A stretch of 64,000 nucleotides of DNA from Squalus acanthias. Taxonomy: Eukaryota. The stretch's first letter is position 1, and each line of letters opens with the position of its first letter. A program made the position numbers and the translations under genes. Positions 16,449-62,643 of this stretch are shown one piece after another. The notes beneath the pieces were generated by a model. The model did not search any database and was not told the DNA's origin. It worked only from the letters and a program-made list of their open reading frames with translations. The stretch is taken from assembly GCA_030390025.1 (NCBI GenBank), contig CM059431.1:114888001-114952000 (forward strand). Reading direction: 5' to 3'.

Positions 16449-17393
16449 TTTTAATTGGGAGTATTCACAAACCTTCTGAATATTGTTTTAACTAAAATTG
16501 AATTACGTACAATTATAAATTATTATGTGTGTCGATACTGGGTAATTGACAATGTGATAAACCTCACTCATGGAAATACTTATTACAAACCTATTCATTA
16601 GTAGCATAGATGTGGAATTAATTATATTTGATTTTCTAAAGTCACCACATGATCTTTTTTTGTGAAGAACAGAATGGAAGCTGCAGCGTTTACTCAGATG
16701 AGATTAACTTTTGCCTACCCAGAGTGATTAACATAAGTACAACACCACACAGAGTATTTTTCAAAACTAGCATAACAATGTTGGTTATACATATTGGGCC
16801 GGGTTTTATGGTCAGCGGTGAACGAACGGCACCAGCTGTTCGTTACACTTACACTTGCCCATAGACTTTCTATGGGTTTTTGCACTGGAAGTTCCTGTCA
16901 GCCAACCATCCAAAAAGCGCAGCGCCCTCTACAGGGCATCTGGGACCTCTGTGAATCAGGCAAGCAACTGTGTATCTCCTTAACCAATCAGATTGAAGAA
17001 TCGTTAATGAGCAGCAGAGTCTGAACCAGGAAGTGTCAGTTATTTTAATTCAATGTCATATCATGTACAGAAAGCCAAATAAAGAGAGTGAAAGAAAGAT
17101 TAGATTAAGAGATAGCGATGAGATAGATAAAAGAGAAAGAAAAAGTGAAAAAAAGTTTTATGTAAATTGTTTCATTTTTAAAAAATCTCCAAAAAATAAT
17201 TAAAATCTGAAGAAATGAAACTCCACACTTGTAAAAGTTAATTTTCAGTGTCAGAGAGGATGTTTGGCATTAATTAAGATGTATCACACCATTAATTGGG
17301 TATGATGCGGAGATGCCGGTGGTGTTGGACTGGGGTGGACAAAAGTGAGAAGTCGCACAACACCAGGTTATAGTCCAACAGCTTTATTTGAAA

Positions 17394-17430
17394 TCACAAG
17401 CTTTCGGAGCGCTGCTCCTTCGTCAGGTGA
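17394..17430 (-). ncRNA. Minimal type I hammerhead ribozyme motif (minus-strand copy)
   Basis: Exact reverse complement of 17523-17559. Confidence 0.72.
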
Positions 17431-17522
17431 AGTGAAGAAATACAAATGGGCACAGCATATATATAGACAGAGTCTATATATATGCTGTCTATATATGCTG
17501 TGCCCATTTGTATTTCTTCACT

Positions 17523-17559
17523 TCACCTGACGAAGGAGCAGCGCTCCGAAAGCTTGTGA
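17523..17559 (+). ncRNA. Minimal type I hammerhead ribozyme motif
   Basis: TCAC-CTGACGA-A-GGAGC agc GCTCC-GAAA-GC-TT-GTGA: CUGANGA and GAAA cores, 5-bp helix II, helix I TCAC/GTGA, palindromic loop-less helix III (AGCT). Confidence 0.75.
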
Positions 17560-17714
17560 TTTCAAATAAAGCTGTTGGACTATAACCTGGTGTTGTGCGA
17601 CTTCTCACATTAATTGGGTACTTATACTGGAATGGACAAGCCCTAAATTTTTCTGGCGAGTTTAGTGCGTATCTATGAGGTAAGTACAGGAAATTCATGC
17701 TGTTCAATGTATTT

Positions 17715-18876
17715 TGACACGGTTGACCATTCCATCCTTCTCCAACGCCTCTCCACTGTCATCCAGCTGGGTGGGACTGCACTCGCCTGTTTCCATTCTT
17801 ATCTATCTAATCGTAGCCAGAGAATCACCTGCAACAGCTTCTCTTCCTGCTCCCGCATCGTTACCTCTGGTATCCTCCAAGGATCTATCGTTGGCCCCCT
17901 CCTATTTCTCATCTACATGTTGCCCCTTGGCAACATCATCCGAAAACACAACATCAGTTTCCACATGTACGCTGACGACACCCAGCTCTACCTCACTACC
18001 ACTTCTCTCAACCCCTCCATGGTCTCTAAATTGTCAGACTGCTTGTCCGACATCCAGTTCTGGATGAGCAAAAATTTTCTCCAATTAAATATTGGGAAGA
18101 CCAAAGCCATTGTTTTCTGTCCTCGCCACAAACTCCGTTCCCTAGCCAGTGACTCCATCCCTCTCCCGAACATCTGTCTGAGGCTGAACCACACTGTTCG
18201 CAACCTTGGTGTCATATTTGACCCTGAAATTAGCTTCTGACCACATATCCACAGCATAACTAAGAACGCCTATTTCCACCTCCGTAACACCGCCCTTGCC
18301 TCACCTCATCCGCTGCTGAAACCCTCATCCATGCCTTTGTTACCTCTAGACTTGACTATTCCAATGCACTCCTGGCTGGCCTCCCACATTCTACCCTACG
18401 TAAACTTGAGGTCATCCAAAACTCGGCTGCCCGTGTCCTAACTCGCACTACATTGGCTCCCGGTTAAGTAACGCCTCGATTTCAAAATTCTCATCCTTGT
18501 TTTCAAATCCCTCCATGGCCTCGCCCCATCTCTGTAATCTCCTTCAGCCCCACAACCCCCCGAGATATCTGAGCTCCTCTAATTCTGGCCTCTTGAGCAT
18601 CCCTGATTATAATCGCTCAACCATCGGTGGCCGTGCCTTCTGTTGCCTAGGCCCTAAGCTCTGGAATTCCCTGCCTAAACCTCTCCGCCTCGCTACCTCT
18701 CTTTCCTCCTTTAAGACCCTCCTTAAAACCTACCTCTTTGACCAAGCTTTTGGTCACCTGCCCTAAGTTCTCCTATGTGGCTCAGTGTCAAATTTTTTGT
18801 CTTTTAACACTCCTGTGAAGCGCACTGGGACATTTTACTACGTTGAAGGCGCTATATAAATACAAGTTGTTGTTGT
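17715..18876 (+). mobile_element. 5'-truncated L2 LINE (RT and 3' end)
   Basis: RT motifs [28 protein letters not shown]. 3' end GCGCTATATAAATACAAG(TTG)n. Flanking duplication TGTATTT at 17708-17714 and 18877-18883. Confidence 0.92.
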
Positions 18877-31306: not shown

Positions 31307-31609
31307 ATGCGCAAGGGTAAGCACTTGGGTGTTTTAATAACTCTTTGTGTTAAGTTACCATTACTCTGATGTCACAGATAAAAATAATTATTTTCGCCAT
31401 TTTCCGGTCATGGCCAATTTTGTCTGCAACTTTGGAAGTGGCTCAGTGAGTTGGAGTGAATGGTGAGACATAACGTTACATCCAGCAATAGTGGTCAGTG
31501 TGAAAGGAATGGATTGGTCATTGTACGGATGCTTTAAGGTGTTGCTGTGGGGTGGTGTGAACCTGGCACAGCATGTGGCAGCCATATGGGTGTAATGCCT
31601 GAAGTTAAG

Positions 31610-32781
31610 TAAATCTGGCCATGAAGAGGCCATCCCTGGCCTCCCGGGCAGGATCTGGACCGCAGGTTCCTCCTGCTCCTCCTCCTCCTCATCTTCCAGC
31701 TGATGCTCCTCCTCCTCTGAAGAGGCTGTGCGCTCATAGCCTTGCTCCTCATGTAGCGCTAATCCTCGTTGCTGTGCTATGTTGTGCAGGGGGCAGCAGA
31801 CCACGATGATTCTGGAGACCCTGGCTGGTGCATACTGAAGGACTCCTCCAAATCTGTCAAGGCATCTGAAGCACATTTTGAGCATGCCTATTGTTTGCTG
31901 TATGACACATCTGGTGGAAATGTGGCTTTCATTATATCTCTGCTCGGCCTCAGTACTTGGCCTCCTCAAGGGTGTCATGAGCCACTTCTTCAATGGCTAG
32001 CCCTTGTCTCCAAGCAGCCAGCTGGAAAGTCTGTTCGGAGGAGCGAAGAGCTGAGGGAGGATGGACTGGCGCAGGATGAAAAAGTCATGGCAGCTGCCAG
32101 GGAATTTGGTGCACACATGCATGATGATCTTCCTGTGGTTGCAGACAAGCTGCACATTAAGGGAGTGGAAGCCCTTGCAATTGACAGAGACTCCTGGGTT
32201 ATGATAGGGTGCCTTGATGACCACACGTGTGCAGTCGATGACGCCCTGCACCCATGGGAAGCCAGCCAGAGCAGCAAAGCCGAGTGCCCGCTCAGTAACA
32301 CTGGCTTCATCAGTGGCAAAGTTGATATAATTGGCTGGCTTGTCAAACAGGGCATCGATGACCTGTGTGATGCATCTGTGGGTGGCCAACTGCGAGATGC
32401 CGCAAATGTCTGCTGCAGAAGAGCCAAAGAAGTTGAGGGTGCTGGTGACTTTGACAGCCACTGGTAAGGCGTGCCCACCAAATCCTCTGGGCTACAGGTC
32501 TTGCTCCAGCAATCTGCAAATGTCTGCAATAACCTTTGGCACTGCTGCTCAGTCATGTTGAGGAAGCTCATCCTCTGCCTGTATAGCCTGTGTTGGGGGT
32601 ATCGCCTCTGGCACAGTGAAGCCCTGCGCTGATGCCCTCTGTCCTGTGCAGCATCAGGTGGATGAGGAGAAGGTTGGTGGTGTTGTTGTTGGTGCTGCTG
32701 GTGTGCCTGGTGCTGCTGGTGTTGGGGCTCATCTTGGTCCAATTCTGAGGACCAAGGTGAGACAGTATAAACAGCACCCAT
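31610..32781 (-). pseudogene. HARBI1-like (DDE_Tnp_4) Harbinger transposase, frameshifted
   Basis: Motifs [72 protein letters not shown] and an acidic tail, split over three frames. Confidence 0.92.
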
Positions 32782-33519
32782 GCTGATGTAATAGATGGCA
32801 GGTCAAGTAGAGATGAAAGATGCAATCTGTCAATGGTGTCATAGGTTCAACCAATGAGGTGACAGTGGATCCCGACTTTGCTGAAAACACTTGCAACCTC
32901 TAGAAAGCTAAATCTGTGGTGCATTAAGTAAGCAGGTGTCAGGTGGTATTTATTGTGCTTTCCATGCTCTGCACTAATGAGTTCCATCAATGGCCACTCA
33001 ACTTCTGCCTCAGGTTCACAGACATGGTTCCAGAGCTGCGTGATTCCCGTGCTCATCTAGGGAAATTGGAAAGGTAGGGTTAAAAAGAAGCTTAAGGGTC
33101 TGACAAGTACCTAATAATGATCTAAATTAGCTCGGCCGCCTCTGCTGTTCGGGTCGCGGCCGCGCTGGCAAACGTGCCCGAGTGAAAGGCGCGTGGAGGT
33201 GGGATGATGGCAGGTTCCCGACCCGCACCGAGTTATTTCAACTTTCATTCCCGGCCCGCCTCCAATCCCGCCCGTACGGACGCCAGAAAATTCTGGCCAA
33301 TGTGTTTCCAAGTTTCTCTGCCCAGCACCTTGGTCCCCAGCTGTAGATTTGGGTAAGCCCCCTCGTGTCTCATGCTACTATATTAAATACCCCTGCTTTC
33401 TCCCTACCTTCGCTTTTGTAGTGGGAGAGTTTAGTAACACTGCTGGAATTAAGGCTATCCCACCCTTCTCCATACTTGGAAATTGGTCCAGTCCCTACAG
33501 TGATGCATTATTTAAACAT

Positions 33520-55949: not shown

Positions 55950-56772
55950 TGAAAGTTAAAATTGAGCGATCTATTTGCTGCTCCAATCCTGCCCCAGGGC
56001 AGGGTTAACCCAGCTGTTTTTTCTGGTGGCTGAAGTGTCCACCTGACTTGGGCGGGTGCCTCATTAATATATGCTAATTGGGGTCCGATGGCATACACAA
56101 TGGCATTTTAATGGCATACTGAGTGAGCGGGGTGTCCGCCGTGGGTGCTCCACTTATTAAAGCCTGTCGGGGAAGAAGTGGAGGTCCTAAAATGTGCAGG
56201 TTAGGTTGATTTGGCTATGATAAATTGACCCTTAGTGTTAGGGGGGGGGGATTAAATATGTGGGGTTATGGGGATAGGATGGGATATGTTAGGGGGAATT
56301 AAATACGTGGGGTTACGGGGCTAGGGTGGGATATGTGTACTGTGGGGATTAAAGCAGGGACAGGGTACTGGATTTGGATGATCAGCCATGATCGTATTGA
56401 ATGGTGGAGCAGGCTCGACGGGCCGAATGGCCTACTCCTGCTCCTAGATTCTATGTTTCTATGTTTCTATGTTTCTAAATGCAAGTTCCAGGCTGCCGAA
56501 GGAAAGTTTGGGCCACGGCTGCCTGGGCTTCCTCCTTCCCACCCATGAGAGACCCCTGCTGATCCCCCCCCCCCTGTAACTACTTGAGTGCGGGATGTTC
56601 TTCGCTTGTACGCAGCAGACCAACTACCTCTTTACACCCGTTTTGGGTGGGCAGCTGGCCGGTGGGATGTAAATGAGGCCCGGCAGCTAATATCCGATGG
56701 GCCTCCCATGGAGGCTCTTGGGCAGGCAGCCTGTGCATCCCGTCAGCTCCTGTCTGAGAGTTAAAGTTCCCC
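55950..56772. mobile_element. Degenerate GC-rich MITE interrupted by an HE1-like SINE
   Basis: Similar to the 4310 and 37681 family (CCTCATTAATAT, AAATGAGGCCC, terminal GTTAAAGTTCCCC). Confidence 0.4.
56189..56477 (+). mobile_element. Headless HE1-like V-SINE fragment with a CR1 tail
   Basis: V-domain end ATGTGCAGGTTAGGTTGATTTGGCTATGATAAATTG, ~42-bp tandem duplication, CR1 tail and (TTTCTATG)n. Second copy at 62343. Confidence 0.7.
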
Positions 56773-62342: not shown

Positions 62343-62643
62343 AAAAATGTGCGGGTTAGGTTGATTTGGCTATGATAAATTGACCCTTAGTGTTAGGGGG
62401 GGGATTAAATATGTGGGGTTACGGGGATAGGATGGGATATGTTAGGGGGAATTAAATACGTGGGGTTACGGGGATAGGGTGGGATATGTGTCGGTGCAGG
62501 CTCGATGGGGATTCTGTGTGGGAAAGCAGGGACAGGGTACTGGATTTGGATGATCAGCCATGATCGTATTGAATGGTGGAGCAGGCTCGATGGGCCGAAT
62601 GGCCTACTCCTGCTCCTAGTTTCTATGTTTCTATGTTTCTATG
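62343..62643 (+). mobile_element. Headless HE1-like V-SINE fragment with a CR1 tail (second copy)
   Basis: Near-identical to 56189-56477. Confidence 0.7.

Follow-up and report, generated by a model that had tools for sequence, protein, structure and literature searches.

A head-to-head, 5'-truncated Penelope-like insertion with a hammerhead motif on each strand in the Squalus acanthias genome

Results

The window is the whole 64-kb stretch of Squalus acanthias DNA that was analyzed (positions 114,888,001 to 114,952,000 of contig CM059431.1). Read from the window sequence, positions 17303-17608 form a 306-bp insert flanked by 12-bp direct repeats (Table 1), which stretch to 13 nt in the repeat search because base 17608 suits both the arm and the flank. 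Two inverted arms, 17345-17463 and 17490-17608, are complementary at 119 of 119 positions, and a 42-nt tail is present on the left only. An earlier note made from the sequence had described a 12-bp target-site duplication, two 119-bp arms without a mismatch, and a one-sided tail of about 42 nt, and all three descriptions hold. The tail is not foreign DNA. It is the minus-strand continuation of the 3' end of the element, and its last base is the A of the ORF ATG in L085, a full-length copy described below. Positions in the element are given as q numbers that follow the sense unit, with q1 at 17490 on the plus strand and at 17463 on the minus strand.

Table 1. Features of the insertion at 17291-17620 of the window
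Feature	Position	Strand	Remarks
Target-site duplication, left copy	17291-17302	.	12 bp; repeat search and direct reading
PLE tail	17303-17344	-	42 nt; pLTR continuation between two inferred RT start sites
Tailed arm (element 3' end/pLTR)	17345-17472	-	17345-17463 is the perfectly paired part
Minimal type I hammerhead motif, tailed arm	17394-17430	-	Predicted cut after 17398, minus strand
TATA-like tract and initiator-like site, tailed arm	17429-17465	-	Putative, from sequence; inferred +1 at 17433; faces outward to the left
Templated snap-back insert	17473-17488	+	Repeats the tailed arm's inner end in inverted orientation, extra TA included
Tail-less arm, same pLTR segment	17485-17608	+	Family-type 7-nt TA tract
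TATA-like tract (17490-17496) and initiator-like site, tail-less arm	17490-17524	+	Putative, from sequence; inferred +1 at 17520; faces outward to the right
Minimal type I hammerhead motif, tail-less arm	17523-17559	+	Cut predicted after 17555; stem I 17523-26/17556-59; stem II 17535-39/17543-47; core 17527-33; GAAA 17548-51; palindromic AGCU 17551-54
AATAAA hexamer	17565-17570	+	Mirror at 17383-17388 on the minus strand
Target-site duplication, right copy	17609-17620	.	Repeat search and direct reading

The spacer between the arms is 26 nt long and, as had been claimed, has its own hairpin (17 bp with a 3-nt loop, 17452-17468 with 17472-17488) and a slipped duplication, here a 13-nt tandem. 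Homology to the element enters the spacer until about 17472 from the left and begins at 17485 on the right, covering approximately half of it. When the arms are extended into the spacer, they are no longer identical. The TA tract is 9 nt in the tailed arm and in the snap-back insert and 7 nt in the tail-less arm, and within the tailed arm this private TA occupies 17464-17472 together with 7 nt of element sequence from further upstream. All 138 other contexts have a 7-nt tract. The final 4 nt of the snap-back insert are common to the right arm as microhomology. One slip, a 16-nt snap-back, and a join at the 4-nt microhomology account for the entire center of the window copy.

The absence of arm differences across 119 nt has a probability of about 0.06 at the family arm rate (97 differences in 4,146 sites). 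The window copy is probably young, and the earlier suggestion of a very recent insertion is plausible, though weakly shown by this value. The window copy itself is verified by the assembly alone. In the contigs of four public runs, none of which spans the locus, neither a filled nor an empty site was seen, because family copies swamp this stretch; the one run that may be RNA is dominated by other copies of the family.

No further pieces of the Penelope-like family were found elsewhere in the 64-kb window. A stop-free frame with a YADD motif at 17700-18100 (plus strand), which starts about 80 bp to the right of the insertion, resembles a fragment of a CR1/L2-type LINE reverse transcriptase. At 31391-32802 (minus strand) lie two long stop-free frames of 202 and 270 amino acids (aa), the beginnings of which resemble a PIF/Harbinger-type transposase. 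A 47-bp tandem of two copies, with an 8-bp tandem after it, is present twice, at 56245-56477 and 62398-62643, about 6.15 kb apart, which suggests that the pair are long direct repeats of another element.

The insertion is a 5'-truncated, head-to-head copy of the end module (pLTR) of an abundant Penelope-like element (PLE). A search of the 3.7-Gb genome with the tailed unit gave 57 matches at 85 to 100% identity among 40 scored candidates, many of them head-to-head pairs, and longer relatives extended upstream into a reading frame. A 251-aa piece of that frame had 59,720 first-look candidates, of which 150 were scored and were 97 to 100% identical. The full-length copy L085 has an 892-aa ORF and a 267-nt pLTR on each side, a direct repeat of 98.5% identity that includes the window unit. 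The window's exact 51-mer, which spans the ribozyme motif, runs into the 3' end of the ORF at 8 of 86 sampled loci, with 85 to 95% aa identity to L085. This link between the window variant and a PLE ORF upholds the earlier view that the locus is of Penelope-like origin and was inserted as an inverted partial repeat. Pfam places RVT_1 in the L085 ORF (E = 2.9e-8), and the motifs DKG and YIDD and a C-x4-C-x2-C linker upstream of YIG were read directly from the protein. The endonuclease part had no Pfam score in L085, and the C-terminal 281 aa of a relative matched 0 Pfam families; a GIY-YIG-type endonuclease domain is thus a putative assignment from motifs. A PDB sequence search gave one uninformative match at an E value of 0.93.

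A CX2-5CxxC zinc-finger-like linker between the reverse transcriptase and endonuclease characterizes the Neptune and Nematis clades (PMC8557442), so the linker in L085 points to one of these two clades. The ribozyme 51-mer has 8,202 exact matches in the 3.7-Gb assembly and a 29-mer of the unit has 19,270, and a genome-wide pattern search found at least 2,664 places where two ribozyme boxes stand head to head within 15 nt. Full-length copies with a stop-free ORF and pLTRs on both flanks were observed at L085:4323-6998 and L086:4271-7036. The family looks recently active.

Each arm carries a candidate minimal type I hammerhead followed by AATAAA, on both strands, as had been noted. The palindromic helix III (AGCU) and a predicted cut after U17555 also agree with our reading of the sequence. 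An Rfam scan returned 27 matches at an E value of ≤10 and no hammerhead family. Nearly all of the matches were to miRNA-precursor models and, all scoring below the gathering score, they were rejected as fits to the shape of a long hairpin. The ribozyme assignment instead draws on core identity and covariation. In 18 distinct variants, hand-picked from the 45 commonest of 121, the core (CUGANGA and GAAA) is invariant in 18 of 18, variation falls in loop II and N7, and 98.1% of cells in helices I and II are paired; in 5 of the 18, a helix I pair changes from C-G to U-A. None of 500 shuffles reached that pairing, a figure that is no probability because the sequences are related. At window position 17555, hammerhead position 17, a family variant has C in place of U; this variant accounts for 11% of the summed contig depth in run X1 and 28% in run X5.

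The earlier note had predicted that self-cleavage would compete with formation of a long double-stranded hairpin. The antisense arm is present as described, but a real competition is overstated, since folding is estimated at about -238 kcal/mol for the arm duplex versus about -11 kcal/mol for the ribozyme motif. A read-through RNA of either strand would make the antisense arm first, and the duplex far outweighs the motif. Cleavage is therefore unlikely, and any transcript of the locus should form a long hairpin. Because each strand has only one sense ribozyme, dimerization would require a second ribozyme in trans.

The 5' ends of the arms were located across the family. Of the 86 arms that bear the motif, 49 begin within q28-35, 6 within q1-27, and the other 31 further upstream; the lower edge of this distribution is artificial, as the search pattern forced the arm start at or before q35. 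The commonest start is q31 (16 of 86 arms). By the TATA/initiator promoter consensus, q31, which lies 30 nt below the TATA tract, is the A of an initiator-like TCACTTC. Mini-insertions of approximately 200 bp, head to head with arms ending at the initiator-like base, number at least 2,664. Both arms are that short in 36 of 56 sampled inverted copies, and the window copy belongs to a minority that retains the TATA tract, in its case on both arms. The pile-up at q31 is likely due to run-off at the transcription start; a stop of reverse transcription at the ribozyme edge is the rival explanation.

Arm starts around the predicted cut site were counted genome-wide at q64, q66, q67, q68, and q71, taking arms in which the base just before the start departs from the unit sequence. 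The raw counts were 246, 148, 575, 323, and 146, respectively, and 4, 13, 15, 15, and 16 of the first 30 loci at each position were true truncations. This gives estimates of 33, 64, 288 (95% confidence interval, 180 to 395), 162, and 78 truncated arms, or 33, 44, 192, 129, and 49 without joints having at least 2 nt of microhomology. Arm starts are thus in minor excess at q67 (window position 17556), where the predicted 3' cleavage product begins and where the peak corresponds to about 1.5% of 19,270 arms; the counts cover these five positions, the confidence intervals at q67 and q68 overlap, the search patterns vary in length by a few bases, and two q67 loci are one duplicated junction. The bulk of arm ends lies away from the cut site, with a minor peak at it. 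Stalling of the reverse transcriptase is a rival explanation for the q67 excess. A joint of 17431 to 17556 was also seen in contigs of public runs X5 and X6.

Arm statistics were collected from a position-ordered sample, the first 90 loci with the 51-mer along contig C1, which yielded 87 insertions after the removal of three double fetches. Inverted pairs account for 59 of the 87, a lower bound given that short partners can be missed, and 28 were scored as solo. Exactly one tail was found in 57 of the 59 inverted copies. One duplicated locus (of L098/L099) was dropped, leaving 56 copies for comparison of the arms. In 14 of these, the tail-less arm extends beyond the tailed one at the 5' end by 5 nt or more; the reverse holds in 20, and the two lie within 5 nt in 22. 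Copies picked by BLAST provide the extremes, with arm reaches of 1140 versus 402 nt and 2462 versus 1320 nt. This BLAST-selected set of 52 pairs (27 with the tailed arm longer, 24 with the tail-less arm longer, and 1 equal) was used for clear extremes only, as the window copy was mis-scored in it through the TA slip and it includes a duplicated locus and one or more false pairs. Overlap at the arm joints of the 56 copies is mostly -3 to +4 nt. Duplications were found in 48 of the 56; 32 of these 48 measure 12 to 13 nt, and they are 70% AT overall. Three pairs of loci (L098/L099, L044/L048, and L183/L184) share an identical junction and flank and so are segmental duplicates or haplotype copies.

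Within single insertions, the arms differ from each other at 97 of 4,146 sites. A one-base insertion in loop II is discordant between the arms in 8 of about 50 insertions, and a G/A site is discordant in 5 of 54 against a background of about 2% per site (P of about 0.004). The two discordances are linked in L129, L180, and L348. Different family variants in the two arms of single insertions were observed in these three and in L333, L335, and L344. The linked discordance suggests that two template RNAs were used per insertion event, and later gene conversion or error hot spots of reverse transcription could also produce discordance. Four other copies truncated at the TATA tract (L034, L033, L035, and L057) have templated TA-rich inserts at the junction, which in L034 consist of 54 nt of repeated units. 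The TATA tract seems to be a hot spot for snap-back synthesis.

Discussion

The insertion in the window is probably a single, noncoding, 5'-truncated stump. Its arms likely arose by separate reverse transcription from RNA, and in any read-through transcript the hairpin would keep the ribozyme silent. In L1 twin priming, two target ends prime two cDNAs that are joined by microhomology, and the inverted part copies another, upstream region of the RNA. Here, only about 40 nt would separate the starts of the two primers, which makes the arms mirror images. Polymerase-theta-type snap-back leaves short templated inserts at joints. Twin priming at two start sites of reverse transcription, closed by a 16-nt snap-back, fits the window copy best. 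From the anatomy of the locus, its family, its junction, and the arm statistics, we infer the following enzymology and order of events. The GIY-YIG endonuclease of the element would cut the target strands 12 nt apart. Each 3' end would then prime reverse transcription, one at the end of the tail and the other about 40 nt upstream, and two start sites at this distance would give one tailed and one tail-less arm. Both cDNAs would end just beyond the TATA tract. The tailed cDNA, slipped by one TA, may then have snapped back and copied 16 nt of itself, and the new end may have annealed to the other cDNA by the 4-nt microhomology, with gap filling leaving the 12-bp duplication. In vitro, the Poseidon PLE protein cuts and extends both strands, two internal start sites of reverse transcription flank the tail, and the protein is predicted to dimerize (PMC11167929). 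Cutting and extension of both strands together with two bracketing start sites are what twin priming requires. The available text of that study reports no difference between the strands in start site and does not derive inverted repeats from it. Our literature search, outside subscription papers such as Arkhipova 2006, found no application of twin priming to PLE palindromes. No study of a PLE dimer or of PLE cryo-EM was found in the literature from 2023 on, and shark Penelope palindromes were met with only in general reviews or surveys.

The earlier note had attributed the whole palindrome to fold-back self-priming of the cDNA, and part of this stands: the 16-nt center is accounted for by such a step. 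The extension of fold-back to the second arm, in which the same dead insertion would have gained its tail-less arm when the cDNA was copied back nearly to its start, is disfavored by the arm statistics and the TA slip, and we regard it as unlikely. The center of the window copy does hold a true 17-bp fold-back hairpin, its arms are identical across 119 nt, and self-priming on the antisense template is the preferred origin of PLE palindromes in PMC3846280. Since the window copy has a longer tailed than tail-less arm, arm length does not decide the matter at this locus; the TA slip is the one feature of the window copy itself that argues against fold-back, which needs a second slip to restore the 7-nt TA tract of the family, and such a slip would rescue it. 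Across the family, each arm has sequence that the other lacks in 14 of 56 copies, and those cannot be made by fold-back of one cDNA. Nor does fold-back predict that arms differ in subfamily variants or that they preferentially stop about 40 nt before the end of the tail. The least probable of the explanations considered is an artifact of assembly or sequencing, in which a chimeric fold-back read would have created the palindrome. The lack of a contig spanning the locus in the four public runs leaves room for it. The 12-bp duplication, the unrelated flanks, the one-sided tail, and the nonsymmetric center speak against it, as do the occurrence of the same anatomy at 57 of 87 sampled loci and the presence of head-to-head joints of this class in contigs of other public runs.

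A retrozyme-like mobile mini-element had been proposed for the case that the palindrome is multicopy, with comparison of spacer junctions across the genome named beforehand as the test. The 32-nt junction pattern of the window copy, with at most one mismatch allowed, has one match in 3.7 Gb, the window copy itself, and no second locus shares the junction. As the junction is unique while the 51-mer occurs 8,202 times, the window copy is no mobile mini-element, and the proposal is not sustained. In a more general form, the palindromes would be nonautonomous retrozyme- or MITE-like units that are transcribed and reinserted whole, and this we consider very improbable. Short head-to-head copies are numerous (at least 2,664), and some of their junctions recur, two of them 7 and 6 times among the first 50 listed. 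When 20 loci of this class were fetched, 6 of 7 copies of one recurrent junction and 5 of 6 of the other had the tail on a common side, which by itself is compatible with amplification of a unit. However, the recurrent junctions sit where both arms stop at the common 5' end, and they appear with the tail on either side and on differing subfamily backgrounds. These opposite-side exceptions and mixed backgrounds make convergence on a shared 5' stop the simpler reading. Whole-unit amplification also fits poorly with the unique junction of the window copy and with 51 distinct arm-length combinations in 56 position-ordered copies. At the window locus, the arrangement is inverted with one sense hammerhead motif per strand, and at least two consecutive head-to-tail units with a same-strand hammerhead, the defining mark of animal retrozymes, are absent.

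The locus is an ordinary dead stump, one of thousands, in an arrangement already published. A broader and more tentative proposal, which we hold to be somewhat less likely than not, is that the short palindromes of this family are a fossil record of PLE integration by a dimeric enzyme with a 12-nt stagger and reverse transcription from both ends, often on two RNAs, with run-off at the transcription start, 1 to 2% ribozyme-cut templates, and a divergent promoter in the window copy. If so, most templates ran off at the pLTR transcription start, and about 1 to 2% were cleaved beforehand by the minimal hammerhead; these would then serve as genomic evidence for cleavage in vivo. The window copy, with a TATA/initiator pair on both arms, could be a divergent promoter that seeds further short copies. 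The origin of PLE inverted repeats and tails and the cutting by hammerheads in vivo are described as open in PMC8557442, PMC4209133, and PMC11167929. We found no report of in vivo cleavage by a PLE hammerhead in the literature outside subscription papers. Both questions can be put to simple genomic tests in this young, high-copy family: two-template twin priming through arm-length asymmetry and arm discordance, and ribozyme activity through a peak of 5' ends at the cut site. Copies with an intact 892-aa ORF would suit the existing in vitro assay.

The arrangement resembles insertions of endonuclease-containing (EN+) PLEs in its head-to-head inverted pLTRs, single-end tail, target-site duplication, and palindrome at the junction. 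Inverted 5'-truncated pLTRs with a one-sided tail of 30 to 40 bp and a target-site duplication are described for EN+ PLEs in PMC3846280, PMC8557442, and PMC8969392. The TATA tract with a TCACT initiator-like site and the hammerhead within the pLTR are further points of agreement, and the layout of the window arms is that described for a rotifer pLTR (PMC3846280). Unlike those insertions, the arms here are cut to about 120 to 170 nt and lack the ORF, and the target-site duplication is nearly constant at 12 bp. The self-priming reading published for PLEs (PMC3846280) is disfavored by the arm statistics in this genome.

The candidate ribozyme shares with the minimal hammerheads described in PMC4209133 a type I core with an extra base after A9, a G10.1-C11.1 pair, a short helix I, and a palindromic helix III region. 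In that source, minimal hammerheads occur in pairs 100 to 700 bp apart on opposite strands, and cleavage was absent as a monomer and low as a dimer. The motif here differs in a helix II of 5 bp rather than 7 to 8 bp and in position 17, which is U in the window copy and C in a minority variant.

Much of the anatomy has a counterpart in the Anolis Poseidon element PAc (PMC11167929). In vitro, two start sites of reverse transcription bracket the tail and both strands are cut and extended; targets are AT rich, as are the 48 duplications here (70% AT), and a hammerhead lies at the pLTR-ORF junction. In PAc the ribozyme and both start sites lie inside the ORF, whereas in the dogfish family they are upstream of the ATG, and the zinc-finger linker points to Neptune or Nematis instead. 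RNA ends at the cut site were not found for PAc in that text, whereas genomic 5' ends peak slightly there in the present family. Animal retrozymes, in turn, are head-to-tail units with at least two same-strand ribozymes (bioRxiv 10.64898/2026.07.22.740005). The window copy is like non-LTR retrozymes (the same source and PMC7229834) in being noncoding, in its type I hammerhead, and in its relation to a PLE pLTR, and it differs from those head-to-tail, same-strand elements in that its two units are inverted, each strand has a single sense ribozyme, and its junction is unique.
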